This document shows positions 28,264-57,634 of a DNA stretch of 64,000 bases, in pieces. The notes under the pieces were generated by a model, which was not told the DNA's origin, made no database searches, and saw only the letters and a list, made by a program, of their open reading frames with translations. The stretch is from Escherichia coli (lineage in GTDB: Bacteria; Pseudomonadota; Gammaproteobacteria; Enterobacterales; Enterobacteriaceae): assembly GCF_024700885.2 (NCBI RefSeq), contig NZ_CP117016.1; one strand, given 5' to 3'. The position numbers and the translations under genes are program-made. How positions within the stretch are numbered: the stretch's first letter is position 1; each line of letters begins with the position of its first letter.

Positions 28264-28942
28264 AAGCGACAGCATCCTCGGCATGGATCGCCGCGGTATC
28301 AAACACAGGCAGAACACTGCGCTCTTCTGGCACCAGTAAACCAATTTCCGTACAGCCAAAAATGACGCCCTGTGCGCCCTGTTCTGCAAGGCGAGCAATC
28401 ACTTGCGCATAATAAGCGCGTGACGCTTCGGTAAATTGCCCCAGACACAATTCTTCAAAGATAATCTGATTAATTTTCGCCCGTTCATCCGCTTCAGGAA
28501 TGAGACAGTTGATGGAAAATTGTTCCGTCAGCCGCCCGCGATAAAAATCCTGTTCCATGGTGTAACGCGTACCCAGCAGCGCCACACGAGTCATTCCAGC
28601 CCGGATAATTGCACGTCCAGTGGCATCCGCTATGTGTAAGAAAGGCAGAGAGCAACGAGACTCAATGGCATCCGCCACTTTGTGCATCGTATTGGTACAT
28701 AACACAATGCCTTCTGCGCCCGCCCGCTGTAAGCCAAGCGCCGCCTCAGCCAAAATGTCCCCGGTTTTGTCCCACTCGCCGCGACGCTGGCACTCTTCTA
28801 TTTCATGAAAATCGACGCTATGTAGCAGCACTTGCGCAGAGTGAAGCCCACCAAGCCGCTGTTTAATACCTTCATTAATCAGACGATAATAAGGAATAGT
28901 GGATTCCCAACTCATTCCTCCCAGCAAACCAATTGTTTTCAT
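28250..28942 (-). CDS. ygeA: Asp/Glu/hydantoin racemase-family protein
   Basis: 230-aa ORF, racemase-like fold; overlaps lysR 3' end. Confidence 0.85.
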
Positions 28943-29031
28943 TCCTCTCTCCTGATGTGTGTTACCGCAACAAGGCTGAATAAGGAACGAGACAAACGCC
29001 TCAACGGCCAGGTGCCCAATCTCTATTAACG

Positions 29032-29064
29032 AAAAAAGGGCTGGATGTACAGCACATCCGGCCC
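29032..29064 (-). terminator. Intrinsic terminator downstream of araE
   Basis: GC-rich hairpin GGGCTGGATGT-ACAGC-ACATCCGGCCC (29038-29064) followed on the minus strand by U6 (plus-strand A-run 29032-29037). Confidence 0.65.
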
Positions 29065-29070
29065 GTGAAA

Positions 29071-30489
29071 TCAGACGCCGATATTTCTCAACTTCTCGCC
29101 TGCCATCAGTTTGCGTTCGATATGTTCCAGCGTGACATTTTTGGTTTCCGGAATGAGCCAGAAAGTAATGCCCACAAACGCAATGTTCAGCCCAGTGTAG
29201 AGCCAGAACGTACCGGCAGCGCCAATGCTATCAAGCAGTGTCAGGAAGGTCGCGCCGATAATCATATTCGACACCCAGTTTGTCGTCGTTGAGCAGGTGA
29301 TGCCAAAATCGCGGCATTTCAGCGGCTGAATCTCAGAGCACAGGATCCACACCACTGGCGCGGCGCTCATCGCATAACCGGCAATACACATCATCGTCAT
29401 GCCAACAGAGAGCCAGGACAAGCCACTGGAAGCCGTACCGTTATCAAACTGCATCAGGCAATAGCCCAGCACCAGAGTGCCTAACGCCATCACGCTGAAA
29501 CCAATTTTCAGAGCCGGTTTACGCCCTGCTTTATCTACCGTAAAGACCGCAATGAAGGTGGCGAACATAAAGGTCAGCCCCACGACCAGAGTCGCAATCA
29601 TCTGTTGTTCTGTGGTCGTAAAGCCCGCCATTTTGAAGATACGCGGCGCGTAGTACATGATGATGTTCATACCGGTAAACTGCTGCATCGCCTGCAACAA
29701 CATACCGAGAAACACAGCACGACGGACGTTACGGTTGATCTTAAACAGTGCCCAACCGCCCTGTTTTAACTTCAGGCTTTCACGAATTTCGTTGAGTTCT
29801 TCTCGCGCTTTTTCCGACGTATCGCGCAGCATACGCAACACTTCTTCCGCCTCAATATGACGCCCTTTTTCCGCGAGCCAGCGCGGGCTATTTGGCAGGA
29901 AGACCACCAGAATAATCAGCAGGACCGCTGGTAAAGCAAGAACCCCCAACATTGCGCGCCAGTTACCGCTATAACTGAACGCTGTATCGGATAAAAACGC
30001 CAGCACGATGCCGAGTGTGACCATCAACTGGTACATACTGATCATCTTACCGCGAACGTTTTCACTTGCCATTTCAGAAAGATACAGAGGAGCGGTGTAA
30101 GACGCGATCCCGACAGCAATGCCCAGCACCACACGAGCGGCGATTAACATCTCTACGCTGGTCGCAAAAGCGGACCCTATAGAACCGAGTACAAACAGGA
30201 TGGCCCCCGCCATCAGGCTGTATTTACGCCCCAGGCGGAACGACAGCCAACCATTAAACAGCGCACCAATTGCTGCGCCGAGCATCATGCTACTGACCAC
30301 CCATTCCTGCAAACGACTGGTCAGCACAAAGTGATCGGTAATGAACGGCAACGCTCCGGCGATTACGCCGATATCAAGACCAAATAACAATCCTGCGACC
30401 GCAGCAGCTACCGAAACAAACATATTCATACGCCGCGTATCCCGCAAAGAACGTGGCGTTAAAGCAGATTCCGTATTGATAGTAACCAT
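29071..30489 (-). CDS. araE: Arabinose:H+ symporter (MFS sugar porter)
   Basis: Internal Met of ORF 29071..30618 gives 472 aa [33 protein letters not shown]; RBS AGGA upstream. Confidence 0.9.
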
Positions 30490-30757
30490 TTTTTCCTGCC
30501 AGCAGAGAGTAAGACATAGTGAAAAAATACGTGAACAATTCACACAGGTGTCAGGTCGGAAATAGCATAAATATGGATTAAATTGCTGCGACATGTCGTT
30601 ATGTGATGGATATTCCAATTTTCAAATTAAGTTGAATAATTGAGATTATTATTAACCACCTAATTTTAAAGCAGATAAAATTCATAAAGTTCATTAATTG
30701 ATAATTGATATGGATTATTTCATAACCATGATATGGATTATGATGATCTACAGATAT

Positions 30758-30781
30758 AAAAAACCCTGCCATGCGGCAGGG
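30758..30781 (-). terminator. Intrinsic terminator downstream of kduD
   Basis: Stem CCCTGCC/GGCAGGG (30764-30770 / 30775-30781) followed on the minus strand by a U-run (plus-strand A-run 30758-30763). Confidence 0.6.
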
Positions 30782-30803
30782 TCATAAAAGTAAGAAGAAT
30801 GGA

Positions 30804-31565
30804 TTAACGCGCCAGCCAACCGCCATCCACGGCAATGGTATAACCATTCACATAATCTGAAGCACTGGAGGCAAGAAACACTACCGGCCCCATCAGGTCA
30901 CTCGGCAGTCCCCAACGGCCAGCTGGAATGCGGTCGAGAATTTCCGCGCTACGTTGTTCATCTGCCCGTAGTTGTTGAGTATTGTTGGTCGCCATGTAAC
31001 CCGGAGCTATCGCATTAACATTAATGTTGTGTTTAGCCCATTCATTCGCCATCAATCGCGTCACGCCCATCACGCCGCTTTTTGATGCGGTATAAGAAGG
31101 CACACGGATCCCGCCCTGGAAGGAGAGCATTGACGCGATATTGATAATCTTGCCGCCATTGCCTTGCGCGATAAAGTGTTTCGCCGCTGCCTGAGACATG
31201 AAGAATACGCTCTTGATATTCAGGTTCATGACATCGTCCCAGTCTTTTTCGCTGAACTCGAGAGCATCTTCGCGCCGAATCAATCCGGCGTTATTCACCA
31301 GGATATCAATATGACCAAACTCAGCTACCGCGCGATCCAGCAGTGCTGGAATGCCATCAATCTTTCGCAGATCGGCGGTCAGGCTTAAAAAACGACGCCC
31401 CAGCGCCGTGACCTGCTTGATGGTTTCAGTCGGTTCAACGATGTTAATGCCAACAATGTCACAGCCCGCTTGCGCCAGCCCCAACGCCATCCCCTGACCC
31501 AGTCCAGTATCACAACCAGTGACGACCGCAACTTTACCTTCGAGAGAAAATGCACTTAAAATCAT
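30804..31565 (-). CDS. kduD: 2-dehydro-3-deoxy-D-gluconate 5-dehydrogenase (SDR family)
   Basis: 253-aa SDR ORF with Rossmann motif TGCDTGLG. Confidence 0.95.
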   Translation of the reverse strand: MILSAFSLEGKVAVVTGCDTGLGQGMALGLAQAGCDIVGINIVEPTETIKQVTALGRRFLSLTADLRKIDGIPALLDRAVAEFGHIDILVNNAGLIRREDALEFSEKDWDDVMNLNIKSVFFMSQAAAKHFIAQGNGGKIINIASMLSFQGGIRVPSYTASKSGVMGVTRLMANEWAKHNINVNAIAPGYMATNNTQQLRADEQRSAEILDRIPAGRWGLPSDLMGPVVFLASSASDYVNGYTIAVDGGWLAR

Positions 31566-31594
31566 AACAATACCTTATTCGTTTATGCCCACAA

Positions 31595-32431
31595 CTAGCG
31601 CAAATCTTTAACGGCCACATGGTCCATATCATCAAAGACCTGGTTTTCACCGACCATGCCCCAGATAAAGGTATAAGCTTTGGTTCCGACACCGGAATGG
31701 ATCGACCAGCTCGGGGAGATCACCGCCTGCTCGTTATGCATCACAATGTGACGCGTTTCTTGCGGCTGCCCCATCATGTGGAAAACGCAGGCGTCATCAT
31801 CCATATTGAAATAGAAATAAACTTCCATCCGGCGCTCGTGGGTGTGACACGGCATGGTGTTCCACAAGTTACCCGGAGCCAGCTCCGTCAGCCCCATACT
31901 CAATTGGCAGGTTTCCAGTACATCCGGGACAAAATATTTGTTAATCGTGCGACGGTTACTGGTGAGGTTATCGCCTAACGTGACTGGAGATACTTCGTCC
32001 GGTGTGACTTTTTTGGTGGGATACGTCGTATGCGCAGGTGCGCAATTGTAATAAAACTTCGCCGGAGTAGCGGTATCAATACTGGCAAAGACAACTTCTT
32101 TTGCGCCTTTACCAACATACAGGGCTTCGCGGTGACCGATTTCATAGCATTGACCATCGACGGTAATCGTACCGGCACCGCCAATATTGATAACACCTAA
32201 CTCGCGACGTTCCAGGAAATAGCTTACGCCGAGTTGTTTACCAACTTCCCCGCCAACGGAAACCGTTTTAGTTACCGGCATAATGCCGCCAACAATAATA
32301 CGGTCAATGTGGCTGTAAACCATGGTGTACTCATCGGCGACAAATACCTTTTCAACCAAAAATTCATTGCGCAGCCCCTGGGTATCCAGCGTTTTTGCAT
32401 GCGCACTGTGGATGCTCTGTCTTACGTCCAC
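31595..32431 (-). CDS. kduI: 5-dehydro-4-deoxy-D-glucuronate isomerase
   Basis: 278-aa [33 protein letters not shown]; upstream of kduD. Confidence 0.95.
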
Positions 32432-32473
32432 ATCAACCTCCGATAATCAGTGAAGCGTGAAAATAGAAAACGA

Positions 32474-32494
32474 TAGTGAAACGCTGTTTCGTTT
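32474..32494. promoter_or_regulatory. Candidate KdgR operator upstream of kduI
   Basis: GAAAC-GCT-GTTTC palindrome (32478-32490), about 45-60 nt upstream of the kduI start; resembles the AAAC..GTTT core of KdgR boxes. Confidence 0.45.
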
Positions 32495-32717
32495 TCTCTA
32501 TAAGGGGATGATATGCCCACGGGATAGGGTTTTCAATTAAAAATAAAACAACGTTTCATTTTTAAGTTAAGGACTGAAAAAAGTGCAGTGTCGATCACGA
32601 ATATGTCATGAGAATGGAAAAATCAGGGAGCCCTGAAAATGTATGTCGACTCGCCAGCCACCATTATTCAACAGATTAATGACGGCTGATATTTATCGGT
32701 AAGGAGGAAATGCAGAG

Positions 32718-33899
32718 CTATTCGTCACGTTCAATGGTCAATGCCACGCCCTGGCCCCCGCCGATACAAAGCGTAGCCAGTCCTTTGCGGGCATTACGTT
32801 TCACCATTTCATGAACCAGAGAAACGAGGATTCGGCAACCGGAAGCGCCTATTGGATGACCGAGTGCGATCGCGCCACCATTGACATTGACCCGACGCTC
32901 ATCCCATTCAAGCATCTTGCCAACCGAAAGCGCCTGTGCAGCAAACGCTTCATTAGCCTCGATAAGATCGACATCAGCCAACTGCCAGCCAACACGCTCC
33001 AGGCAACGGCGGGTCGCATACACCGGCGCAATTCCCATCAATGCCGGATCTACACCAACGCTGGCAAATGCGCGGATGCGGGCCAGCACGGGTAAATTCA
33101 ACGCTCGTGCTTTGGCTTCGCTCATCATCATTACTGCAGCTGCGCCATCGTTTATGGATGATGCATTACCCGCTGTCACAGAGCCGAGACTATCAAATGA
33201 AGGATTTAAACGGGCTAAGCCTTCTGTACTGGCGTCAGTGCGTGGCTGTTCATCGGTATCTACAACCAACGTCTGACCGTTACTTTGGGTCATTACCGGG
33301 ACGATCTCATCTTTAAATCGTCCGGCGTCAATCGCCGCTCGCGCTTTTTGTTGCGAGCTAAGTGCGTAAGCATCCTGCAACTGACGGCTGATGCCATATT
33401 CGCGAGCCAGATTTTCGGCGGTGACACCAATATGATAATCATTGAAGGCATCCCACAACCCATCGTGCACAAGACTATCAACCAACTGGCTATTGCCAAG
33501 CTGTGCACCAGTGCGGCTATCAGTCAGAACATGTGGTGCGCGGCTCATGTTTTCCTGGCCACCGGCGATGACAATATCAGCCTCGCCACACTGTATCGCC
33601 TGAGTAGCCAGATGCAGTGCTTTAAGCCCGGAACCGCAAACGTCATTAATAGTGATTGCAGAAACGCTGTTAGGAAGACCACCTTTAATAGCCGATTGCC
33701 TTGCCGGATTCTGCCCTGCCCCTGCAGTCAACACCTGACCAAGAATCACTTCATCCACCGCATATGCAGGAACACCGGTACGTTCTATTAACGCTTTCAC
33801 GACCAGGCTGCCAAGTTCCACGGCGGAATGACCCGCTAACGCACCACGAAAGCAGCCGATAGGTGTCCGTAACGCCCCGACAATCACAACGTCTTTCAT
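32718..33899 (-). CDS. yqeF: Thiolase-family acetyl-CoA acetyltransferase
   Basis: ORF MMKDVVIVGALRTPIG...; thiolase fold. Confidence 0.9.
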   Translation of the reverse strand: MKDVVIVGALRTPIGCFRGALAGHSAVELGSLVVKALIERTGVPAYAVDEVILGQVLTAGAGQNPARQSAIKGGLPNSVSAITINDVCGSGLKALHLATQAIQCGEADIVIAGGQENMSRAPHVLTDSRTGAQLGNSQLVDSLVHDGLWDAFNDYHIGVTAENLAREYGISRQLQDAYALSSQQKARAAIDAGRFKDEIVPVMTQSNGQTLVVDTDEQPRTDASTEGLARLNPSFDSLGSVTAGNASSINDGAAAVMMMSEAKARALNLPVLARIRAFASVGVDPALMGIAPVYATRRCLERVGWQLADVDLIEANEAFAAQALSVGKMLEWDERRVNVNGGAIALGHPIGASGCRILVSLVHEMVKRNARKGLATLCIGGGQGVALTIERDE

Positions 33900-34153
33900 C
33901 ACAACCTCGCACCAATTAACAGTGCAATAGTAAATGATTGTTAATAACAGTTATCTTAATTGTTTAAAAAAAGTGATTTTTATCACAAAGGAAATACGCC
34001 TGACCAGCGGTCAGAGACATAACTGGCACGTAAGGTTTGCAACCACTAACCCACCAATAGAGAGGTAGAAAGGGCGTTAATCTCCCATACTTAACCTGGT
34101 TTATGGTAAATTGCCCTCCATTTTGTTTAATTTGTAGATGATACGTTCAGATA

Positions 34154-35842: not shown

Positions 35843-36475
35843 ATGGGGCTTTGTAGTCGTTATAAAAGTCTTACATGCAATAGTTGCTCAATGCATTGCC
35901 AAATAATGCCAGAAGAGTCACCGCGTTTGCAGTATTGCGCAAACTCGTGTTTTTGTATGTGGCCCGAAGAAAGTTCATATTTTAATCGTGGTGTGGTGGA
36001 AGGTATCTTAACAAAAAACCACAATGCGAGATTAAGCGGATATATTTTTGTCGATTTTTCAGTAAGTTTTTTACGTCTATTCCTTGAAAAAGACTGGATT
36101 GACTATCTTGCAAGTACTGACATGGGGATTGTTTTAGTCAGCGACCGAAATATGCAATCGTTAGCTAACTACTGGCGAAAACACAACTCTGCAATATCTG
36201 CTGTCATATATAATGATGATGGTCTTGATGTTGCCAATGAAAAGATCAGACAACTATTTATTGGTCGTTATTTATCATTTACCAGAGGGAACACATTAAC
36301 TCAGATGGAATTCACCATAATGGGATATATGGTTTCTGGTTATAATCCATATCAGATTGCTGAAGTTCTGGATATGGATATCCGTAGCATCTACGCGTAC
36401 AAGCAACGAATCGAAAAGAGAATGGGTGGTAAAATAAACGAGTTATTTATTCGTTCACATTCGGTCCAACATTGA
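35843..36475 (+). CDS. yqeH: LuxR/FixJ-type HTH transcriptional regulator (ETT2-island remnant)
   Basis: AT-rich ORF; strong RBS GGGAGG 9 nt upstream of the Met at 35843 (ORF track frame opens at 35783); C-terminal LuxR-like HTH segment QMEFTIMGYMVSGYNPYQIAEVLDMDIRSIYAYKQRIEKRMG. Confidence 0.7.
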   Translation: MGLCSRYKSLTCNSCSMHCQIMPEESPRLQYCANSCFCMWPEESSYFNRGVVEGILTKNHNARLSGYIFVDFSVSFLRLFLEKDWIDYLASTDMGIVLVSDRNMQSLANYWRKHNSAISAVIYNDDGLDVANEKIRQLFIGRYLSFTRGNTLTQMEFTIMGYMVSGYNPYQIAEVLDMDIRSIYAYKQRIEKRMGGKINELFIRSHSVQH

Positions 36476-36688
36476 TACTCAATAATCTGCCAGAATCATA
36501 CTCTGCTTATACGGGCATCTATTGAAATGCCCGTATTTTACAAATAAGCAGTACCCCCAAGAGTAAACAACATGGTATTTAAAACCATCACACGAAAAAT
36601 TCAGAAGCATTACGAAATATGAATTTACAAACAGGTGATGCTGCCAACTTACTGATTTAGTGTATGATGGTGTTTTTGAGGTGCTCCA

Positions 36689-36964
36689 GTGGCTTCTGTT
36701 TCTATCAGCTGTCCCTCCTGTTCAGCTACTGACGGGGTGGTGCGTAACGGCAAAAGCACCGCCGGACATCAGCGCTATCTCTGCTCTCACTGCCGTAAAA
36801 CATGGCAACTGCAGTTCACTTACACCGCTTCTCAACCCGGTACGCACCAGAAAATCATTGATATGGCCATGAATGGCGTTGGATGCCGGGCAACTGCCCG
36901 CATTATGGGCGTTGGCCTCAACACGATTTTACGTCACTTAAAAAACTCAGGCCGCAGTCGGTAA
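36689..36964 (+). CDS. insA: IS1 InsA (transposition inhibitor / N-terminal part of InsAB' transposase)
   Basis: 91-aa [43 protein letters not shown] (zinc-finger CxxC...CxxC). Confidence 0.9.
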
Positions 36965-37386
36965 CCTCGCGCATACAGCCGGGCAGTGACGTCATCGTCT
37001 GCGCGGAAATGGACGAACAGTGGGGCTATGTCGGGGCTAAATCGCGCCAGCGCTGGCTGTTTTACGCGTATGACAGTCTCCGGAAGACGGTTGTTGCGCA
37101 CGTATTCGGTGAACGCACTATGGCGACGCTGGGGCGTCTTATGAGCCTGCTGTCACCCTTTGACGTGGTGATATGGATGACGGATGGCTGGCCGCTGTAT
37201 GAATCCCGCCTGAAGGGAAAGCTGCACGTAATCAGCAAGCGATATACGCAGCGAATTGAGCGGCATAACCTGAATCTGAGGCAGCACCTGGCACGGCTGG
37301 GACGGAAGTCGCTGTCGTTCTCAAAATCGGTGGAGCTGCATGACAAAGTCATCGGGCATTATCTGAACATAAAACACTATCAATAA
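36883..37386 (+). CDS. insB: IS1 InsB frame (expressed as InsAB' transposase by -1 frameshift)
   Basis: ORF in the -1 frame relative to insA; slippery A6C motif at 36940-36946 inside the insA/insB overlap. Confidence 0.85.
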
Positions 37387-37638
37387 GTTGGAGTCATTAC
37401 CCAGTCTGTCGATGACATTACAATGCCAGGATGGGCTTTATCTTCACGTTGTGCTATCGCGGTGTGAGAGGTGCAACTGCCGCCAACGTTAGGTTATACT
37501 GTCATCTCACCGTGTAACTTAACGTGACAGTTACTAAGGGCGGATCACAATGGTAGAACTCCTAAGCAAATTAAATAGGTAACTGTTTAAGTTGCTGACA
37601 GAGAAGACTTTTTTGGTCTTCTCCACCTGGGGAGATTC

Positions 37639-37712
37639 TGGAGCGGGCGAAGGGAATCGAACCCTCGTATAGAGCTTGGGAAGCTCTCGTTCTACCATTG
37701 AACTACGCCCGC
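37639..37712 (-). tRNA. glyU: tRNA-Gly (anticodon CCC)
   Basis: Minus strand reads GCGGGCGTAGTTCAATGGTAGAACGAGAGCTTCCCAAGCTCTATACGAGGGTTCGATTCCCTTCGCCCGCTCCA; cloverleaf with anticodon CCC and encoded CCA end. Confidence 0.9.
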
Positions 37713-37790
37713 TTCGAGATGCGTAAGGCATTATAAACCTTACGCTCTCCTTAGCAAGTGCCGCGCTGCTGACTGCTGATTAATTCGCCA

Positions 37791-38543
37791 TCAGCATTTT
37801 GGCTTGCTGCTCTGAGGCGGCAAGTAACGCAGCGGATCAATTGCCGTAGCACGGTAACGAATCTGGAAATGCAGGCGAACCGATGCCGCATCAGTGCTCC
37901 CCATAGTGGCGATTTTTTGCCCAGCCTTCACGCTTTGCCCATTATTTACCAGCATCGTGTCATTATGGGCGTAAGCCGTAATGTAATCTTCACTGTGTTT
38001 AATCATGATGAGATTACCGTAGCCACGCAGCTGGTTGCCCACATACACCACCTTTCCTGCACCCGCGGCGTAAATAGGTGTACCTCGTGGAGCTGAGATA
38101 TCAATCCCTTTATTGCCGCCATCAGCTGTCGAATACGGCATGATAACTTTCCCTGTCGTTGGCCATAACCAACAACGTTGCCCTACTGGCGGCCAGGAAG
38201 ATTTCGGTACTGCTGATGACGGTGTAACCGATGCGGTTTTGGTCGTTGATTTGGCGGTTGATTTACGTGTACTGCTACTTTTCGCCCCACCCAGTTTTAG
38301 TTTCTGACCAACTTCAATGGTGTAAGGGGGGGAAATGCCGTTCAGTCGCGCCAGCTCTTTTACGCTGGTTCCCGTGGTGCGCGAAATACGATATAGCGTA
38401 TCCCCCCGTTTCACGGTGTAAACGGAGCCGGAATACGTTCCTGTATCGGATGATTTGCTACCCGAGCAGCCCGCCAAAAGCAGTCCAACCGATAACAACA
38501 TCACGATACCCAGAGATTTTTTATTCAGGCGTCCCGCACTCAA
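37791..38543 (-). CDS. ygeR: LysM + M23-family peptidase-domain lipoprotein
   Basis: ORF 37791..38567; lipobox LLAGCSG, LysM segment YTVKRGDTLYRISRTTGTSVKELARLNGI, C-terminal M23-like domain; probable TTG start with RBS GAGGA 6 nt upstream. Confidence 0.8.
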   Translation of the reverse strand: MSAGRLNKKSLGIVMLLSVGLLLAGCSGSKSSDTGTYSGSVYTVKRGDTLYRISRTTGTSVKELARLNGISPPYTIEVGQKLKLGGAKSSSTRKSTAKSTTKTASVTPSSAVPKSSWPPVGQRCWLWPTTGKVIMPYSTADGGNKGIDISAPRGTPIYAAGAGKVVYVGNQLRGYGNLIMIKHSEDYITAYAHNDTMLVNNGQSVKAGQKIATMGSTDAASVRLHFQIRYRATAIDPLRYLPPQSSKPKC

Positions 38544-38887
38544 AATCTTTCCTCGCTTAAAAAACAAGACGCCATATCATAGCAGCCAGCCTCTGGATAC
38601 CCAATCTCTTGCTTCTCGAAAAACGCGGTAATAGAGAAAGAGGTTAATTTCATTTGGCAAAGGGAAGTATCATCAGCAAAATATTCGCTGCAGAGGTATC
38701 GAATTTCCTGACTTTTTTACCCTATTTCCCATCCTGATGCGTAATAATCCTGATTTATCACATTGATTTTATCGCCACTCATATTGATACGTATCACTGC
38801 CCCTATTCAGAGTCCTGTTTCGTATCATATCTGTGTTTTTTTAACGTCATCACACTTCCTTCCTCCCCTAACGCTTATCGTCGTTTC

Positions 38888-38902
38888 TGGCGTAAATCTT
38901 GC
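38888..38902 (+). promoter_or_regulatory. Candidate sigma54 (-24/-12) promoter for xdhABC
   Basis: TGGCGTA-AATC-TTGC matches TGGCAC-N5-TTGC with correct GG-N10-GC spacing, about 95 nt upstream of xdhA; TTATCA-CAT-TGAT and TGATA-CG-TATCA palindromes at 38751-38797. Confidence 0.45.
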
Positions 38903-38997
38903 CTGCTTAGACTAAATCTTTGCCATAAGAACCAAATGTTCAAATCGAGGGGATTTCTATGGAAGCGCGGGAAGCAACCGCTACGGGTGAATCTTGC

Positions 38998-41256
38998 ATG
39001 CGCGTCGATGCCATTGCTAAGGTCACCGGGCGGGCACGATATACTGACGATTATGTTATGGCGGGCATGTGTTACGCGAAATATGTACGTAGCCCTATCG
39101 CACATGGTTATGCCGTAAGTATTAATGATGAACAAGCCAGAAGTTTACCAGGCGTACTGGCGATTTTTACCTGGGAAGATGTACCTGATATCCCATTCGC
39201 TACAGCTGGGCATGCCTGGACACTTGACGAAAACAAGCGCGATACCGCCGATCGCGCACTGCTAACTCGCCATGTTCGTCATCATGGTGACGCCGTTGCC
39301 ATCGTCGTGGCCCGTGATGAACTCACGGCAGAAAAAGCGGCGCAATTGGTCAGCATTGAGTGGCAAGAATTACCCGTTATCACCACGCCAGAAGCGGCGC
39401 TGGCAGATGACGCTGCACCAATCCATAACGGCGGCAATTTACTAAAACAAAGCTCGATGTCGACGGGTAATGTCCAACAAACAATCGATGCCGCCGATTA
39501 CCAGGTGCAGGGGCACTATCAGACGCCGGTCATTCAACATTGTCACATGGAAAGCGTGACATCGCTGGCATGGATGGAGGATGACTCGCGAATTACCATC
39601 GTTTCCAGCACCCAGATCCCGCACATTGTTCGCCGTGTGGTTGGTCAGGCGCTGAATATTCCCTGGTCATGCGTACGAGTCATCAAACCGTTTGTCGGTG
39701 GCGGTTTTGGTAATAAACAGGATGTACTGGAAGAGCCAATGGCGGCATTCCTGACCAGCAAGCTTGGCGGCATTCCGGTGAAAGTTTCCCTTAGCCGTGA
39801 AGAGTGTTTCCTCGCAACCCGTACCCGCCACGCTTTTACTATTGACGGGCAAATGGGCGTGAACCGCGACGGAACATTGAAAGGTTATAGTCTGGATGTT
39901 CTGTCTAACACCGGCGCTTATGCATCTCACGGGCACTCCATCGCTTCTGCAGGGGGGAATAAAGTCGCTTACCTTTATCCTCGTTGTGCCTACGCTTACA
40001 GTTCAAAGACCTGCTATACCAACCTCCCCTCGGCTGGTGCGATGCGTGGTTATGGCGCGCCACAAGTCGTATTTGCCGTTGAGTCTATGCTTGATGACGC
40101 CGCGACAGCGTTAGGTATTGATCCTGTTGAAATTCGTTTACGCAACGCCGCCCGCGAAGGAGATGCTAATCCGCTCACAGGCAAACGTATTTACAGCGCA
40201 GGGTTGCCGGAGTGTCTTGAAAAAGGCCGGAAAATCTTTGAATGGGAAAAACGCCGTGCAGAGTGCCAGAACCAGCAAGGCAATTTACGCCGCGGCGTTG
40301 GCGTCGCCTGTTTTAGCTACACCTCTAACACCTGGCCTGTCGGCGTAGAAATTGCTGGCGCGCGCCTGTTGATGAATCAGGATGGAACCATCAACGTACA
40401 GAGTGGTGCCACGGAAATCGGCCAGGGTGCCGACACCGTGTTCTCGCAAATGGTGGCAGAAACCGTGGGGGTTCCGGTCAGCGACATTCGCGTTATTTCA
40501 ACACAAGATACCGACGTTACGCCGTTCGATCCCGGCGCATTTGCCTCACGCCAGAGCTATGTTGCCGCGCCCGCGCTACGCAGTGCGGCACTGTTATTAA
40601 AGGAGAAAATCATCGCTCACGCCGCTGTCATGCTACATCAGTCAGCGATGAATCTTACCTTGATAAAAGGCCATATCGTGCTGGTTGAACGACCGGAAGA
40701 GCCGTTAATGTCGTTAAAAGATTTGGCGATGGATGCCTTCTACCACCCTGAACGCGGCGGGCAGCTCTCTGCCGAAAGCTCCATCAAAACCACCACTAAC
40801 CCACCAGCGTTTGGCTGTACCTTTGTTGATCTGACGATCGATATTGCGCTGTGCAAAGTCACCATCAACCGCATCCTTAACGTTCATGATTCGGGCCATA
40901 TTCTTAATCCGTTGCTGGCAGAAGGTCAGGTACACGGCGGAATGGGAATGGGCATTGGCTGGGCGCTATTTGAAGAGATGATCATCGATGCGAAAAGCGG
41001 CGTGGTCCGTAACCCCAATCTGCTGGATTACAAAATGCCCACCATGCCGGATCTGCCACAACTGGAAAGCGCGTTCGTCGAAATCAATGAGCCGCAATCC
41101 GCATACGGACATAAGTCACTGGGTGAGCCACCAATAATTCCTGTTGCCGCTGCTATTCGTAACGCGGTGAAGATGGCTACCGGTGTTGCAATCAATACAC
41201 TGCCGCTGACGCCAAAACGGTTATATGAAGAGTTCCATCTGGCAGGATTGATTTGA
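38998..41256 (+). CDS. xdhA: Xanthine dehydrogenase molybdenum-binding subunit
   Basis: Molybdopterin-binding aldehyde oxidase/XDH family ORF; alternative in-frame upstream ATG at 38959 with GAGGGG RBS (start uncertain). Confidence 0.9.
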   Translation: MRVDAIAKVTGRARYTDDYVMAGMCYAKYVRSPIAHGYAVSINDEQARSLPGVLAIFTWEDVPDIPFATAGHAWTLDENKRDTADRALLTRHVRHHGDAVAIVVARDELTAEKAAQLVSIEWQELPVITTPEAALADDAAPIHNGGNLLKQSSMSTGNVQQTIDAADYQVQGHYQTPVIQHCHMESVTSLAWMEDDSRITIVSSTQIPHIVRRVVGQALNIPWSCVRVIKPFVGGGFGNKQDVLEEPMAAFLTSKLGGIPVKVSLSREECFLATRTRHAFTIDGQMGVNRDGTLKGYSLDVLSNTGAYASHGHSIASAGGNKVAYLYPRCAYAYSSKTCYTNLPSAGAMRGYGAPQVVFAVESMLDDAATALGIDPVEIRLRNAAREGDANPLTGKRIYSAGLPECLEKGRKIFEWEKRRAECQNQQGNLRRGVGVACFSYTSNTWPVGVEIAGARLLMNQDGTINVQSGATEIGQGADTVFSQMVAETVGVPVSDIRVISTQDTDVTPFDPGAFASRQSYVAAPALRSAALLLKEKIIAHAAVMLHQSAMNLTLIKGHIVLVERPEEPLMSLKDLAMDAFYHPERGGQLSAESSIKTTTNPPAFGCTFVDLTIDIALCKVTINRILNVHDSGHILNPLLAEGQVHGGMGMGIGWALFEEMIIDAKSGVVRNPNLLDYKMPTMPDLPQLESAFVEINEPQSAYGHKSLGEPPIIPVAAAIRNAVKMATGVAINTLPLTPKRLYEEFHLAGLI

Positions 41257-41266
41257 GGATAACATC

Positions 41267-42145
41267 ATGTTTGATTTTGCTTCTTACCATCGCGCAGCAA
41301 CCCTTGCCGATGCCATCAACCTGCTGGCTGACAACCCACAGGCCAAACTGCTCGCCGGTGGCACTGACGTACTGATTCAGCTCCACCATCACAATGACCG
41401 TTATCGCCATATTGTTGATATTCATAATCTGGCGGAGCTGCGGGGAATTACGCTAGCGGAAGATGGCTCACTACGTATCGGCTCTGCAACGACATTTACC
41501 CAGCTCATTGAAGATCCTGTAACTCAACGTCATCTCCCAGCGTTATGTGCTGCGGCCTCGTCCATTGCCGGACCGCAGATCCGTAACGTCGCTACCTACG
41601 GTGGAAATATTTGCAACGGTGCTACCAGTGCAGATTCTGCCACGCCAACGCTAATTTATGACGCGAAACTGGAGATTCACTCCCCGCGCGGTGTTCGTTT
41701 CGTCCCGATTAATGGCTTTCACACTGGGCCGGGCAAAGTGTCTCTTGAGCATGACGAAATCCTTGTCGCCTTTCATTTTCCGCCCCAGCCGAAAGAACAC
41801 GCGGGCAGCGCGCATTTTAAATATGCCATGCGCGACGCAATGGATATTTCAACGATTGGCTGCGCCGCACATTGCCGACTGGATAACGGCAATTTCAGCG
41901 AATTACGCCTGGCATTTGGTGTTGCCGCGCCAACGCCAATTCGCTGCCAACATGCCGAACAGACTGCACAAAATGCGCCATTAAACCTGCAAACACTGGA
42001 AGCCATCAGCGAATCAGTCCTGCAAGATGTCGCCCCGCGTTCTTCATGGCGGGCCAGTAAAGAGTTTCGTCTGCATCTCATCCAGACGATGACCAAAAAA
42101 GTGATTAGCGAAGCCGTCGCCGCGGCGGGGGGAAAATTGCAATGA
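41267..42145 (+). CDS. xdhB: Xanthine dehydrogenase FAD-binding subunit
   Basis: 292-aa CO dehydrogenase flavoprotein-like ORF (GGTDVL motif); overlaps xdhC start (ATGA). Confidence 0.95.
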
Positions 42146-42621
42146 ATCACAGCGAAACAATCACCATCGAATGCACCATTAACGGGATGCCTTTTCAGCT
42201 TCACGCCGCACCAGGCACGCCGCTCTCGGAATTACTCCGCGAACAAGGACTGCTAAGTGTCAAACAAGGGTGCTGCGTGGGTGAATGTGGTGCCTGTACG
42301 GTGCTGGTCGACGGCACAGCAATAGACAGTTGCTTATACCTTGCCGCCTGGGCTGAAGGAAAAGAGATCCGCACGCTGGAAGGTGAAGCGAAAGGCGGAA
42401 AACTTTCTCATGTACAGCAGGCTTATGCTAAATCCGGCGCAGTGCAGTGCGGGTTTTGTACGCCTGGCCTGATTATGGCTACCACAGCAATGCTGGCGAA
42501 ACCACGCGAGAAGCCATTAACCATTACGGAAATTCGTCGCGGACTGGCGGGAAATCTTTGTCGCTGCACGGGGTATCAGATGATTGTAAATACAGTTCTG
42601 GATTGCGAGAAAACGAAGTAA
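42142..42621 (+). CDS. xdhC: Xanthine dehydrogenase [2Fe-2S] subunit
   Basis: 159-aa ORF with both 2Fe-2S cysteine motifs ([11 protein letters not shown] ... QCGFCTPG ... CRCTGY). Confidence 0.95.
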
Positions 42622-42628
42622 AAGGATA

Positions 42629-42650
42629 TCCGGCCTGAATTCAGGCCGGA
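42629..42650. terminator. Palindromic hairpin between convergent xdhC and ygeV
   Basis: TCCGGCCTG-AATT-CAGGCCGGA; on the minus strand followed by a U-rich tract, so mainly a ygeV terminator, possibly bidirectional. Confidence 0.55.
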
Positions 42651-42660
42651 TTCACTGAGG

Positions 42661-44439
42661 TTATGTGTTTAACAACTCATATTTCTTAATCTTGCGATAG
42701 AGCGTAGCAATGCCGATGCCCAGTTCATCAGCAACTTGCTTCTTGCTGTTATGACGTGAAAGCGCCTCGCGGATCATTTGCTTTTCCATCTCCTCCAGCG
42801 CCGTGCCGCCCGCATCATCGAGTGCCAGGTGCGCCTCGTTGACCTCTGTTACATCACTTTGCTCCGTTGTGCCATTATTCAGCAGATTTGGCGGCAATAG
42901 CGTGCTGTCGATAACTTCACCTGAAGGAACCACGTTAACCAGATATTCCATCAAATTGCTTAACTCGCGCAGGTTTCCGGGCCAACGATGCTTACGCAAT
43001 ATTTCGACGACATCGGGAGCAATGCCCGGATAAACCGATCCCAGACGACGGGTATGCAGATGTAAAAAGTAATGCACCAGTAGTTCAATATCTTCCTGAC
43101 GTTCACGCAGCGGTGGCAGAGTTATCGGGATAACATTAAGTCGGTAGAAGAGATCTTCGCGGAATTTACCTTCGGCAATGAACTGGGCCAAATTCTGGTT
43201 AGTTGCAGAAATGATGCGAATGTCGACTTGTATTGGGCTACTGGCACCAATCGGCAGAATTTCACGCGCCTCAATAGCGCGCAGTAATTTAGCCTGCAAC
43301 ATTAATGGCATATCACCTATTTCATCGAGAAACAGCGTGCCCGTATTCGCCGCCTGAATCAACCCTGTTTTACCGTTGGCAGAAGCGCCAGTAAATGCGC
43401 CTTTAACATAACCGAACAGTTCGCTCTCCAGAAGCTGCTCCGGAATCGCGGCACAGTTGATAGCAATAAAGGGTTTATTCCGTCTTCCGCTCAACTTATG
43501 GATTGCACGGGCGACAACTTCTTTACCCGTGCCGCTTTCACCAACCACCATAACGCTGGATGGGCTGGGTGCAATACGGCTAATGAGTCGTTTTAATTGC
43601 CGCATAACACGGCACTCGCCAACCAATTGTTCAATATGCGGTTCATCAGGTGCATTTGCTACAGAAAAACTGGTATGCGATTGGTGAAACGCCATTAAAA
43701 ATAATTGTCGGCCCTGAATGTTATGCAATTGACCAATGATTAATTCACTTTTATCGTCCCACGAAACAATATGCTGCATATGTCCATGGGTAAAATTACT
43801 CTCAAATGTTAATGGTCTGAAACGGATAGGTTTCCCAATAATATTATTTTGTACAACACCAAGTGTTTTTAAGGCAGTCTGATTAACAAACTGAATCCGA
43901 TTATCGTCATCAACAACTAATACACCCTGATCCATATTATCGATCATGGTCGCGAATATTTTACTGATGTTATCTCCTGGTCCCTGATCCTCCAGAAGTT
44001 TCGAAACAAAAATGGTGGATATATGGCGAACGTAATCAGAAAATTCGCGTAAATTATCACTAATATGCTCTTGTTGCTCGTGGGTAACGGCAATCAAACT
44101 TATCACCCCAACACAACGATCCTGTAAAATGACAGGCGTACCCAGAAATGCTTTTTCGCGGCAATTTTCTTTACTATCGCAACCTTCGCAAAGGGGATCG
44201 AAGCGAGACTGTGTCACAACTTTTTCAGTTTTCGTTTCCAGGACGTGGCGGAGCAGGCGTGAGTTGCCGCTCAACTGGCGACCAAGAAACTTCCCATACG
44301 CGCCCGTTCCGGCGACGCGACACAAGTTTTCATCAACGATCTCAACCTCAAGCTGCAAAACGCTGGCAAGCATTCTGGCAAAACGCTGAATTGTCGGTTG
44401 AATTTGCATCAATACTGACTGCGTAGTAGCAAGCTCCAT
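42661..44439 (-). CDS. ygeV: Sigma54-dependent transcriptional activator (bacterial enhancer-binding protein)
   Basis: 592-aa ORF with AAA+ sigma54 interaction domain: Walker A GESGTGKE, GAFTGA motif (KGAFTGA), ESELFGY, and C-terminal HTH. Confidence 0.9.
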   Translation of the reverse strand: MELATTQSVLMQIQPTIQRFARMLASVLQLEVEIVDENLCRVAGTGAYGKFLGRQLSGNSRLLRHVLETKTEKVVTQSRFDPLCEGCDSKENCREKAFLGTPVILQDRCVGVISLIAVTHEQQEHISDNLREFSDYVRHISTIFVSKLLEDQGPGDNISKIFATMIDNMDQGVLVVDDDNRIQFVNQTALKTLGVVQNNIIGKPIRFRPLTFESNFTHGHMQHIVSWDDKSELIIGQLHNIQGRQLFLMAFHQSHTSFSVANAPDEPHIEQLVGECRVMRQLKRLISRIAPSPSSVMVVGESGTGKEVVARAIHKLSGRRNKPFIAINCAAIPEQLLESELFGYVKGAFTGASANGKTGLIQAANTGTLFLDEIGDMPLMLQAKLLRAIEAREILPIGASSPIQVDIRIISATNQNLAQFIAEGKFREDLFYRLNVIPITLPPLRERQEDIELLVHYFLHLHTRRLGSVYPGIAPDVVEILRKHRWPGNLRELSNLMEYLVNVVPSGEVIDSTLLPPNLLNNGTTEQSDVTEVNEAHLALDDAGGTALEEMEKQMIREALSRHNSKKQVADELGIGIATLYRKIKKYELLNT

Positions 44440-44808
44440 AGCTTTACCTTCCAGACTTACTTAAAAGTCGATCATTGAAGACGTTGATGGTTCACAGATC
44501 ATGATGATATTAACTCAGGCGAAATTGGCTTTGATAAAAACATAAGATTTTTATCACTTTCTAATGAAATTATGGAAGAGATATCACATTTCTATATCAA
44601 TATGAGAATTACGGCGGTGAGTTTATCAAACTGAAGAGAGAGCGCCTGTTCCTTTATCTTATTTCTGATACTTAGCAGCAAATAAATAACGCGATAAAAA
44701 AAGCCAAACGTTTTCGTATTTTACAAACAACCAGAAGCTGGCATCAATTTGTGATCAACCCCACACATTACCCGTCAAATTAGTCTTTTGCAGCCGCTTG
44801 GATAATTC

Positions 44809-44824
44809 TGGCATAGTTATTGTT
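44809..44824 (+). promoter_or_regulatory. Weak candidate sigma54 promoter upstream of ygeW
   Basis: TGGCATA-GTTA-TTGT: -24 element good, -12 is GT rather than GC; TGATAA/TTATCA-type repeats further upstream (44531-44633). Confidence 0.3.
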
Positions 44825-44915
44825 AGTCCCAGGTATAGCTGTGAAAAGACCAATCACTTTTGGCAAGTCACAGTGAAATAAACCTCTTTGCCTGTCATTC
44901 CACTACCGGGACTTT

Positions 44916-46106
44916 ATGATGAAAACTGTTAATGAGCTGATTAAGGATATCAATTCGCTGACCTCTCACCTTCACGAGAAAGATTTTTTGTTAACGTGGG
45001 AACAGACGCCAGATGAACTGAAACAAGTACTGGACGTTGCCGCAGCATTAAAAGCACTGCGTGCTGAAAACATCTCAACCAAAGTCTTTAATAGTGGATT
45101 AGGTATTTCCGTATTCCGCGACAACTCCACCCGTACCCGTTTCTCTTATGCTTCCGCGCTTAACCTGCTCGGCCTTGCACAGCAAGATCTCGACGAAGGC
45201 AAATCACAAATCGCTCACGGCGAAACCGTGCGTGAAACCGCCAATATGATCTCCTTCTGCGCCGATGCCATCGGTATTCGTGACGATATGTATCTGGGCG
45301 CAGGCAACGCCTATATGCGTGAAGTTGGCGCTGCACTTGATGACGGTTACAAGCAGGGTGTGCTGCCGCAACGTCCGGCTTTAGTGAACCTGCAATGCGA
45401 TATTGACCACCCGACTCAGTCAATGGCTGACCTGGCATGGTTACGTGAACACTTTGGTTCACTGGAAAACCTGAAAGGTAAAAAAATCGCCATGACCTGG
45501 GCCTACTCCCCAAGCTATGGCAAACCGCTCTCTGTACCACAAGGCATCATCGGTCTGATGACTCGCTTCGGTATGGATGTCACCCTGGCCCATCCGGAAG
45601 GCTACGACCTGATCCCGGATGTCGTTGAAGTCGCTAAAAACAATGCTAAAGCCTCCGGCGGTAGCTTCCGTCAGGTCACCAGCATGGAAGAAGCCTTCAA
45701 AGACGCAGACATCGTTTATCCGAAGTCATGGGCACCTTACAAAGTGATGGAAGAGCGTACTGAATTGCTGCGTGCGAACGATCACGAAGGCTTAAAAGCA
45801 CTGGAAAAACAGTGTCTGGCACAGAACGCGCAACACAAAGACTGGCATTGTACTGAAGAGATGATGGAACTGACCCGTGATGGCGAAGCCCTGTACATGC
45901 ACTGCCTGCCAGCTGATATCAGCGGCGTATCCTGCAAAGAAGGTGAAGTGACTGAAGGCGTATTCGAAAAATACCGTATCGCGACCTACAAAGAAGCCAG
46001 CTGGAAGCCTTATATCATCGCCGCGATGATCCTGTCCCGCAAATACGCCAAACCAGGTGCACTGCTCGAGCAACTGCTGAAAGAAGCGCAAGAACGCGTG
46101 AAATAA
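44916..46106 (+). CDS. ygeW: Carbamoyltransferase-family protein (ATCase/OTCase fold)
   Basis: 396-aa ORF with carbamoyl-phosphate binding STRTR motif (DNSTRTRFSYASA). Confidence 0.9.
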   Translation: MMKTVNELIKDINSLTSHLHEKDFLLTWEQTPDELKQVLDVAAALKALRAENISTKVFNSGLGISVFRDNSTRTRFSYASALNLLGLAQQDLDEGKSQIAHGETVRETANMISFCADAIGIRDDMYLGAGNAYMREVGAALDDGYKQGVLPQRPALVNLQCDIDHPTQSMADLAWLREHFGSLENLKGKKIAMTWAYSPSYGKPLSVPQGIIGLMTRFGMDVTLAHPEGYDLIPDVVEVAKNNAKASGGSFRQVTSMEEAFKDADIVYPKSWAPYKVMEERTELLRANDHEGLKALEKQCLAQNAQHKDWHCTEEMMELTRDGEALYMHCLPADISGVSCKEGEVTEGVFEKYRIATYKEASWKPYIIAAMILSRKYAKPGALLEQLLKEAQERVK

Positions 46107-46163
46107 CCCCTCGGGCCGATCAGCTGGTCGGCCCTCTATTTCCAGAGGCCAAAAGGATAGGAT

Positions 46164-47360
46164 ATGTCCGTTTTCTCATTGAAGATTGATATCGCCGATA
46201 ACAAATTTTTCAACGGCGAAACATCACCGCTCTTTTCGCAAAGCCAGGCCAAACTGGCGCGCCAGTTCCACCAGAAAATTGCTGGTTATCGCCCAACACC
46301 GCTTTGTGCGCTGGACGATCTCGCAAACCTTTTTGGTGTGAAGAAAATTCTCGTCAAAGACGAATCAAAACGATTCGGTCTGAACGCCTTCAAAATGCTC
46401 GGCGGTGCGTACGCCATCGCTCAATTATTGTGTGAAAAATATCATCTTGATATCGAAACGCTGTCATTTGAGCATCTGAAAAATGCCATCGGCGAAAAAA
46501 TGACCTTCGCGACCACCACCGACGGCAACCACGGGCGCGGTGTGGCATGGGCAGCACAGCAACTCGGACAGAATGCGGTGATTTACATGCCGAAAGGTTC
46601 TGCTCAGGAACGCGTTGACGCCATTCTGAACCTCGGTGCCGAGTGCATCGTCACGGATATGAACTATGACGATACCGTTCGCCTGACCATGCAACACGCG
46701 CAGCAGCACGGCTGGGAAGTGGTGCAAGATACCGCCTGGGAAGGTTACACCAAAATCCCAACCTGGATCATGCAGGGCTATGCAACACTGGCAGATGAAG
46801 CCGTCGAGCAAATGCGTGAAATGGGCGTAACCCCGACGCACGTTCTGCTGCAAGCTGGTGTCGGTGCAATGGCCGGTGGTGTGCTGGGTTATCTGGTCGA
46901 CGTCTATAGCCCGCAAAATCTGCACAGCATTATTGTTGAACCTGACAAAGCTGACTGTATTTATCGCTCCGGCGTCAAAGGCGACATCGTCAACGTTGGC
47001 GGTGATATGGCCACCATCATGGCGGGCCTGGCCTGCGGCGAACCTAACCCGCTGGGCTGGGAAATCCTACGTAACTGCGCCACCCAATTCATCTCCTGCC
47101 AGGACAGTGTTGCCGCATTAGGTATGCGTGTGCTGGGTAATCCGTACGGCAATGACCCGCGCATCATCTCCGGTGAATCCGGCGCTGTCGGTTTGGGCGT
47201 TCTCGCAGCGGTTCATTATCACCCGCAACGTCAAAGCCTGATGGAAAAACTGGCGCTGAACAAAGATGCCGTAGTGCTGGTTATCAGCACTGAAGGCGAC
47301 ACAGACGTGAAGCACTACCGCGAAGTTGTCTGGGAAGGCAAACACGCTGTAGCACCTTAA
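46164..47360 (+). CDS. ygeX: PLP-dependent 2,3-diaminopropionate ammonia-lyase
   Basis: 398-aa fold-type II PLP enzyme ORF. Confidence 0.9.
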   Translation: MSVFSLKIDIADNKFFNGETSPLFSQSQAKLARQFHQKIAGYRPTPLCALDDLANLFGVKKILVKDESKRFGLNAFKMLGGAYAIAQLLCEKYHLDIETLSFEHLKNAIGEKMTFATTTDGNHGRGVAWAAQQLGQNAVIYMPKGSAQERVDAILNLGAECIVTDMNYDDTVRLTMQHAQQHGWEVVQDTAWEGYTKIPTWIMQGYATLADEAVEQMREMGVTPTHVLLQAGVGAMAGGVLGYLVDVYSPQNLHSIIVEPDKADCIYRSGVKGDIVNVGGDMATIMAGLACGEPNPLGWEILRNCATQFISCQDSVAALGMRVLGNPYGNDPRIISGESGAVGLGVLAAVHYHPQRQSLMEKLALNKDAVVLVISTEGDTDVKHYREVVWEGKHAVAP

Positions 47361-47417
47361 TCACCCTATTGGAACTGCTCCCTGCAAAACGGGGAGTAAA
47401 AAATCTGGAGAAAAATA

Positions 47418-48629: not shown

Positions 48630-48646
48630 TTACTCTTCACTTATTC

Positions 48647-48671
48647 CCCTCCGGTTCGCCGGAGGGTTTTT
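48647..48671 (+). terminator. Intrinsic terminator / attenuator between ygeY and hyuA
   Basis: Stem CCCTCCGG / CCGGAGGG with UUCG tetraloop followed by T5 (48667-48671), 11 nt before the hyuA ATG. Confidence 0.6.
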
Positions 48672-48681
48672 GGAGTTTGCT

Positions 48682-50067: not shown

Positions 50068-50114
50068 CCACTGCCAAGGATCTATACACAATCAAGAATG
50101 ATGAGTGAGGAAAA

Positions 50115-51047: not shown

Positions 51048-51087
51048 TTAAAAGGCCGGGTGGGTAATACCATCCGGCCATTTTCAT

Positions 51088-52713: not shown

Positions 52714-52760
52714 ACCAACCTCAATGGATATCCTTTCAGTAACCCGGAATACCCGGGCCG

Positions 52761-53531: not shown

Positions 53532-53633
53532 GAGTCTTTATGACCTCTCTGGGATAAATTATCCCCAACTTAATCCATCAGGAAGTAACGCAATTATCAG
53601 GCGTTATTAGCCCCTATAAATAATGGAACCACT

Positions 53634-57632: not shown

Positions 57633-57634
57633 TC

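Follow-up and report, generated by a model that had tools for sequence, protein, structure and literature searches.

A probable IS1-associated deletion of about 39 kb, spanning ETT2 and an adjoining phage-like element, at the yqeH–glyU locus of Escherichia coli

Between yqeH and the tRNA gene glyU, the window (the whole 64,000-nucleotide stretch of Escherichia coli DNA analyzed here) carries a single complete IS1 copy, which is best explained, with high confidence, as the scar of an IS1-associated deletion. The DNA that appears to have been lost at this locus comprises the ETT2 apparatus and regulator genes past yqeH, together with a phage-like element and its integrase. An IS1-mediated deletion of ETT2 genes had been proposed in a preliminary description of this DNA; the IS1-bridged scar and the disappearance of ETT2 past yqeH stand, but the size and extent given there do not, the loss amounting to ∼39.2 kb and taking in a second element.

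Structure of the Junction

The left flank opens with yqeH (35843..36475, plus strand), which encodes a LuxR-type regulator and is the first open reading frame of ETT2 (ECs3703), as annotated by RefSeq in MLI114, whose sequence is identical, and in agreement with the list of open reading frames and the ETT2 gene table in PMC3977695. The gene is intact and is the sole ETT2 gene remaining between yqeH and glyU. It is followed by the first 158 bp of the yqeH–yqeI spacer (36476..36633, plus strand), which are collinear with K-12, with the ST38 isolate 1697008 (hereafter ST38) and with strain PKF11 to the last base before IS1, and which end at the left breakpoint. The K-12 alignment of this flank is gapless up to NC_000913 position 2988326, a point 158 bp past yqeH and 176 bp ahead of yqeI, and a terminator-like hairpin is predicted in the spacer at ∼36504–36550 (−17.4 kcal/mol, z = −5.1).

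On the other side of IS1 lie 237 bp of non-coding DNA (37402..37638), followed by glyU (37639..37712, minus strand), identified as tRNA-Gly(CCC) by ARAGORN and Rfam. Upstream of glyU, on the side unaffected by the deletion, is a promoter-like site that is a consensus match only (37730..37757, minus strand; TTGCTA-16-TATAAT), and then actS (ygeR; 37791..38543, minus strand), with which the core genes resume on the right of the island site. Over 30–45 kb of the window, the tRNA was the sole Rfam match. With yqeH ending at 36475 and the tRNA at 37639–37712, the spacers measure 158 bp on the yqeH side and 237 bp on the glyU side, in agreement with the lengths first reported. The alignments show yqeH and its terminator-like hairpin, as well as glyU and its promoter-like site, to be undamaged by the presumed deletion.

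The IS1 copy itself (36634..37401, plus strand) is of the IS1A type and, as the preliminary description had it, is complete at 768 bp when read directly from the sequence. Its inverted repeats, IRL (36634–36656) and IRR (37379–37401), agree at 18 of 23 positions; the element begins with GGTGATGCTGCC... at 36634 (longer read GGTGATGCTGCCAACTTACTGAT) and ends with ...GAGTCATTACC at 37401 (longer read ...ATCAATAAGTTGGAGTCATTACC). The frame of insA (36689–36964, plus strand; 91 aa) is intact, that of insB' (plus strand) is open to 37386, and the A6C motif AAAAAAC, associated with the −1 frameshift between insA and insB', is located at ∼36940. The copy thus has the features that define the IS1 family, namely a length of ∼768 bp, imperfect inverted repeats of ∼23 bp, and insA and insB' with the frameshift motif, and the identical MLI114 sequence is labeled in RefSeq as 'IS1-like element IS1A family transposase, programmed frameshift'. 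Strains J3 and LR-50 carry an IS1 that is 100% identical to the window's, and the SMS-3-5 copy differs from it at two positions (IS1 positions 444 and 486); the window contains no further IS1 and no other long repeat of at least 200 bp. The element appears functional and could drive more deletions, into yqeH or glyU.

The 9-mers on either side of IS1, TTACAAACA on the left and CAGTCTGTC on the right, do not match, and direct inspection of the flanks found no target-site duplication, shorter and shifted forms included. The difference between the flanks had already been noted, and no hidden direct repeat emerged on re-inspection. A positive control is provided by strain J3, in which the same IS1 is present as a simple insertion with a perfect 9-bp duplication (TAACGATAA), ∼200 bp to the right of the window's site and just ahead of yqeI. 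A missing duplication is to be expected of a deletion or recombination product and is no argument against the identity of the element as IS1.

The Missing Interval

ETT2 has been defined as extending from ECs3703 (yqeH) to ECs3737 (a glucoamylase-like gene), adjoining glyU and of low GC content (PMC3977695). In ST38 and PKF11, the gene order is yqeH, a near-complete ETT2, a 12.95-kb element and glyU, with an ETT2 that consists of type III secretion system (T3SS) apparatus genes, including a few pseudogenes, and then a GH15 glucoamylase-like gene. The two flanks of the window's IS1 lie 39,300 bp apart in ST38 (breakpoints at 8463 and 47764) and 39,204 bp apart in PKF11 (breakpoints at 7292 and 46497). 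Alignment to MG1655 and to ETT2-positive relatives, the check originally suggested for defining the endpoints, places them precisely: collinearity with ST38 and PKF11 breaks exactly at the IS1 ends (...TTACAAACA/ATAGTGGC... on the left and ...GCGTGTGTT/CAGTCTGTC... on the right). The lost DNA corresponds to ∼26.6 kb of ETT2, from yqeI on, and 12.7 kb of the glyU element, and the missing interval has a GC content of 37% vs. 51% for the window. No T3SS gene is present between yqeH and glyU in the window, which is collinear with SMS-3-5 here. Since yqeH (ECs3703) and 158 bp of spacer are all that is left of ETT2, while relatives hold the full cluster, the window is regarded as carrying an ETT2 remnant and not the island.

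In K-12, the yqeH–glyU interval spans 10.8 kb, from yqeI to ygeQ, in agreement with the ∼11 kb given for it in the preliminary description. Its use as the comparator for the loss does not hold up, given that the right breakpoint lies outside ETT2 and outside any K-12 sequence, in the glyU element. The 237-bp segment has no counterpart in K-12, where the alignment of the right flank begins at glyU. K-12 is a misleading reference at this locus: judged against the nearest intact relatives, ∼39.2 kb appears to have been lost, not 11 kb.

The 237 bp are a remnant of the tRNA-proximal end of a phage-like element integrated into glyU, being collinear with the end of that element in ST38 and PKF11, and the sequence is found in 265 of 5,426 complete E. 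coli genomes (∼5%). The 12.95-kb element was seen whole at glyU in both ST38 and PKF11, with complete att repeats and a tyrosine integrase encoded at the end far from glyU. In ST38, the att repeats form a perfect 22-nt direct repeat, TGGAGCGGGCGAAGGGAATCGA, that equals the 3' end of glyU and whose copies are 12,950 bp apart. Matches to PHROG families include major head, tape-measure-like, tail-fiber and replication-initiator proteins, and the element contains an iteron-like array of five copies; its coverage by any deposited phage does not exceed 3%. In the window only the remnant is present: the att core occurs as one copy, at 37639–37660 (the 3' 22 nt of glyU), and the second att copy and the integrase are absent.

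Distribution of the Junction Among E. coli Genomes

The collection of 5,426 complete E. coli genomes was searched with queries across each IS1 junction. Single-piece matches to the left and to the right junction came from the same five genomes only, namely MLI114 (100%), SMS-3-5, GIMC1405:EC_Lstone01, WWCOL-236 and 98232, of which the last four are ST354-type; SMS-3-5 has been assigned to ST354 (PMC9174282). The carriers originate from Mali, the USA, Russia and Egypt and include one wastewater isolate. The deletion is not private to the window strain, being common to the four ST354-type genomes and MLI114. The window is the same as MLI114 at every stretch compared, and the 10 kb to the right of IS1 are 100% identical among all five genomes. 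Base identity of both junctions in the five genomes shows that the junction arose once and, as these are independently assembled complete genomes, that it is no assembly artifact.

The next-nearest relatives by right flank (99.0%; PKF11, PKF4 and others) have both ETT2 and the element, which supports their arrangement as the ancestral layout. An ancestral junction that never held ETT2 had been named as the finding that would overturn the proposed deletion; the nearest relatives carry ETT2, and the deletion stands. An IS1 at just one of the two endpoints, be it the left or the right, occurs in none of the 5,426 genomes, and synthetic queries for the reciprocal junctions (IS1 right end to yqeI side, and element side to IS1 left end) found none. 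The parent therefore appears to be absent from the sampled genomes. The nearest match to the reciprocal-junction queries was an unrelated IS1 ∼12 bp off, in strain PEC389.

The yqeH–yqeI region is a repeated target of IS1 across strains: 38 further genomes carry IS1 in the same orientation within ∼0.6 kb of the site, at no fewer than 10 different positions. IS1-bridged loss of all or much of ETT2, with differing endpoints and without duplications, was found in at least eight other genomes (FDAARGOS_1248, LR-50, HUM3355, C1, ET896, TUM9803, XJW9B277 and LR-21-1), and these deletions are independent of the window's. Two of them, ET896 and TUM9803, share an identical left junction of GCATTTGTC with IS1 in yqeI, and their right ends are 233 bp apart in ygeQ, a nested pattern as expected from a single anchored IS1 end. 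The genome collection contains no simple-insertion parent of this pair.

Origin of the Deletion

The ancestral locus would have had the layout of PKF11 and ST38, with yqeH, a near-complete ETT2, the 12.95-kb element in the 3' end of glyU, and glyU. A resident IS1 at one endpoint, probably in the AT-rich yqeH–yqeI spacer, may then have attacked with its free end a target 39 kb off on the same molecule, by intramolecular replicative transposition. The outcome would be one IS1 that joins spacer base 158 to the last 237 bp of the element, with ∼39.2 kb gone, including the integrase and the distal att. Such an IS1 'adjacent deletion' is a textbook process of intramolecular replicative transposition. 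It is consistent with the finding that both endpoints are IS termini and that both flanks are collinear with undeleted relatives; a parent with IS1 at one end was not found for this junction, and a nested pair occurs only at the yqeI site, in ET896 and TUM9803.

RecA-mediated recombination between two direct IS1 copies, leaving one hybrid IS1 behind, would have the same product, and with the parent unsampled the two routes are inseparable by sequence; context modestly favors the adjacent deletion, at somewhat better than an even chance, and leaves recombination between copies as the lesser candidate, though one with an appreciable share of the probability. Two earlier insertions would be needed for it in place of one, in the yqeH–yqeI spacer (with duplication of TTACAAACA) and in the element 237 bp from the tRNA (with duplication of CAGTCTGTC). 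One-IS1 parents would be expected to read ...TTACAAACA–IS1–TTACAAACAATAGTGGC... at the left site or ...GTGTGTTCAGTCTGTC–IS1–CAGTCTGTCGATG... at the right site, and the two together would constitute the two-IS1 parent; none of these arrangements occurs among the 5,426 genomes. This route does predict exactly what is seen, a single IS1 whose flanks differ and whose ends are the breakpoints, and the occurrence of IS1 in the same orientation at no fewer than 10 spacings nearby in 38 other genomes makes two close copies plausible. The ET896/TUM9803 pair, with one end in common and the other variable, fits end-anchored transposition better, although it represents a different junction.

Simple insertion of IS1 into an ancestrally short, ETT2-free yqeH–glyU spacer, followed by decay of the duplication through mutation, accounts for the presence of an intact IS1 and for nothing further. 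Against it, the flanks correspond to stretches that relatives have 39 kb from each other, and the collinearity of each breaks off precisely where IS1 begins or ends; yqeH and the spacer after it are moreover ETT2 DNA, the 237 bp come from an integrative element that has lost its second att site, and the two 9-mers share no register. Its probability is negligible, and the collinearity of the flanks over 39 kb together with the att evidence rules it out. The same vanishing probability attaches to integrase-mediated excision of the glyU element or assembly collapse across the IS1 repeat, notwithstanding the tyrosine integrase and att repeats of the element and the standing of IS copies as a classic cause of misassembly. 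Excision would have taken out the 12,950 bp from one att core to the other and nothing else, sparing no 237-bp remnant and leaving ETT2 in place; with the remnant kept and the distal att gone, it too is ruled out. A collapse would have to have produced the same junction in five independent complete assemblies.

Probable Acquisition of the Scar by Recombination

The DNA on the two sides of IS1 has different affinities. From 34010 to 36633, up to IS1, the left flank is of the strain 1190 group type, with 0 differences from 1190 and 13 from SMS-3-5, and in the ∼42 kb from −14 kb to 28.3 kb the window/MLI114 sequence has one difference from strain 1190. Between the two, SNP profiles delimit a 5.6-kb third-source patch (28367..34009) unlike either 1190 or SMS-3-5, with 56 differences from 1190, many of which are also differences from SMS-3-5. 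Divergence from SMS-3-5 to the left of IS1 is 1.3–2%, and the last difference, at 36554, is 80 bp from IS1. The right flank (37402..64000, and on to ∼82 kb in extended MLI114 coordinates) is of the ST354 (SMS-3-5) type and departs from SMS-3-5 at just ∼12 positions over the 44 kb beyond IS1; divergence is back at 82–98 kb in the extended coordinates. Compared with strain 1190, the DNA to the right of glyU diverges by 1.4–2%.

The 2.6-kb left-flank allele is found at 100% only in MLI114 and a group of ∼21 genomes that includes 1190, elppa4, SW4848, O166:H15 strains and others. At a 15-kb locus ∼2.5 Mb away, MLI114 is 100% identical to the 1190 group only, and SMS-3-5 is absent among the 29 genomes with at least 99% identity there; the clonal background of MLI114 is judged from this one distant locus and ∼45 kb left of the junction. 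Strain 1190 itself has a near-complete ETT2 abutting glyU, without the 13-kb element and without the 237-bp sequence. Chi sites are not informative about the exchange point, since those in the correct orientation occur at 24723 before the junction and then not until 40801.

The combination of a 1190-type left background, taken as the strain's own, with ∼44 kb of ST354-type DNA, from the 237-bp remnant rightwards, argues that the window strain probably obtained the scar through homologous recombination, not in place. The window strain would descend from an ancestor that resembled strain 1190, carried ETT2 and had it swapped for the scar by way of DNA from an ST354-like donor. Crossing over would have taken place ∼44 kb away on the right, and on the left the exchange would fall either in the final 80 bp of homology or in IS1 itself. 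An exchange point at most 80 bp from heterology would be unlikely a priori unless branch migration stalls, and we suggest that stalling at the border of homology and heterology might place the exchange point by the scar. The two differences in IS1 and the unmatched 5.6-kb patch indicate either that the sampled genomes do not include the actual donor or that more than one event took place, and a multi-step history of the import is possible.

Conversely, the scar may be native to an ST354-like window lineage and vertically inherited there, with the left side later overwritten from a 1190-like, ETT2-positive donor. This order of events would be served by the near-identity to ST354-type genomes over 44 kb to the right of IS1 and by the point that imports from ETT2-positive donors, if the junction is to survive them, must end at the junction, where on this premise homology ends. 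It appears quite unlikely when set beside the distant locus ∼2.5 Mb off, which is 100% of the 1190 group and has no SMS-3-5 among its matches of at least 99%, the single SNP vs. strain 1190 over ∼42 kb left of the junction, and the end of ST354 identity past ∼82 kb on the right. On account of the distant locus, the match to 1190 on the left and the limit at ∼82 kb on the right, the ST354-like part has the look of an insert and not of the frame, as import of the scar would have it.

A broader and more doubtful proposition is that the scar constitutes a transferable island-deletion allele that has moved between unrelated E. coli backgrounds with exchange at IS1, within 80 bp or inside it. If this were true, IS-bridged scars would mark, and perhaps serve as, the crossovers by which island loss spreads, as opposed to repeated independent decay.

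Implications and Comparison With Known Systems

Mutational attrition of ETT2 was described by Ren et al. (2004; J Bacteriol 186:3547), as summarized in PMC7058095, PMC3977695 and PMC11068852. Deletion isoforms that lack several kb of ETT2, as well as insertions of IS elements into it, are already on record in these reviews, which present the attrition just as deletions and unnamed transposase insertions. The searchable literature, where Ren et al. (2004) is represented only through citing papers, contains no account of this junction, of IS1-bridged ETT2 loss, or of IS1 as a recurrent agent of near-total ETT2 loss. The scar is a fresh example of the well-known erosion of genomes by IS elements and leaves the understanding of IS1 or ETT2 function unchanged; what is new here is the 39-kb size, the involvement of a second mobile element, the common ST354-type origin and the probable horizontal acquisition.

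The record of the locus is corrected from 11 to 39 kb and to two mobile elements, and K-12 is a misleading guide for genomes of the phylogroup D/F type. With both junctions known, the scar provides a defined, datable marker allele for the ST354-related clade and for recombination into an unrelated lineage. Taken together, this scar and the eight or more other IS1-bridged losses, with their different endpoints, show that IS1 plays a major part in the 'mutational attrition' of ETT2. Should the pattern at the recombination boundary prove general, it would bear on the spread of pathogenicity-island deletions through populations.

The glyU element resembles P4-like and PICI-like tRNA-integrated elements in its tyrosine integrase, its att repeats derived from a tRNA 3' end, its replication-initiator-like gene, its iterons and its few head and tail genes; unlike such elements, it is represented in the window by just 237 non-coding bp, and phage coverage of it is at most 3%. 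The loss of the T3SS-2 cluster beside glyU, with left-end regulators left behind, is shared with the described attrition of ETT2, whereas here the island has been lost almost entirely, the breakpoints coincide with the ends of IS1, and a neighboring integrative element has also been removed. The classic IS1 adjacent deletions are reportedly those of the gal region studied by Reif and Saedler in 1975. The window's junction is like these gal-type deletions in keeping one IS1, in having no target-site duplication, in combining one original flank with one new target and in a size of tens of kb; it differs in that a one-ended parent was not found among 5,426 genomes and the transposase route is inferred. 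Loss of islands by allelic replacement, in which an empty-site or deleted allele is brought in by homologous recombination, is general in recombining bacteria. Import of the scar would match that process in placing a deleted allele in a foreign background, with donor-type DNA on one side and recipient-type DNA on the other, but in contrast to the usual case the exchange point would abut the scar (at most 80 bp away or inside IS1) instead of lying kilobases away, and the donor is unsampled.

Insertion Sequences and Nested Deletions Around yqeI

The yqeH-yqeI spacer together with the 5′ portion of yqeI (window 36476-36633; K-12 equivalent, L001 5170-6030) is an apparent hot spot for IS1 insertion. 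Same-orientation IS1 copies lie inside about 0.6 kb in 38 other genomes and occupy at least 10 distinct positions, a count confined to that orientation because the search joins only pieces on the same strand. One of these copies, in strain PEC389, is located about 12 bp from the breakpoint of the window.

Among other genomes with IS1-bridged losses of ETT2, the unrelated isolates ET896 (L012) and TUM9803 (L013), with IS1 at about 2502-3269 in each, have in common a left junction within yqeI (GCATTTGTC joined to IS1), while their right junctions in ygeQ are separated by 233 bp, and the two are a nested-deletion pair. In strain C1, the IS1 is positioned 4 bp from the ET896/TUM9803 site and is associated with another endpoint again. 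Strain HUM3355 carries a second, inverted IS1 (L010 4900-5199) that truncates the region immediately to the right of actS, where the start of xdhA is expected, so that one of two IS1-associated rearrangements lies on each side of the glyU-actS segment in this strain.

The IS1 of the window has the canonical IS1A sequence, and all four ST354-type genomes with the same scar carry G both at IS1 position 444 (window 37077) and at position 486 (window 37119). The presence of G at position 444 in the IS1B-type copies of C1, ET896, and TUM9803 as well suggests gene conversion among IS1 copies later than scar formation.

Divergent Blocks in the Flanking Sequence

A 5.6-kb patch covering the araE-kduD-kduI-yqeF region (window 28367-34009) is unlike both strain 1190, which represents the strain's own background, and SMS-3-5, and represents either an import of its own or one piece of a mosaic import tract. 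A second block, containing bglA-gcvTHP-ubiIH-pepP and located at about 82-98 kb in extended window coordinates, diverges by about 2% between MLI114 (L019), the strain matching the window, and SMS-3-5 (L020); it terminates the 44-kb stretch over which these two genomes are near-identical, and in MLI114 it is unlike strain 1190 too. Just left of the window, SMS-3-5 (L022 39402-44631) carries a 5.3-kb island of PTS and sugar-phosphate genes between the tRNA-Met triplet and amiC that is missing from the same site in MLI114 and strain 1190.

The Integrative Element at glyU

Window 37402-37638 is the sole piece surviving in the window of a 12.95-kb integrative element at glyU, found in the undeleted layout of the ST38 isolate L008 (NZ_OZ204848.1, 35051-48022); about 5% of E. 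coli genomes contain this terminal 237-bp sequence. The element encodes a tyrosine integrase along with head, tape-measure-like, tail-fibre, and replication-initiator-like proteins, and includes about 2 kb free of annotated genes and an iteron-like array of five copies of about 23 bp (L008 45136-45274). Among deposited phages, no single phage covers more than 3% of the element; phage Mt1B1_P17 (151 kb) matches it over a single 353-bp stretch at 99.2% identity. The glyU element could be a phage satellite.
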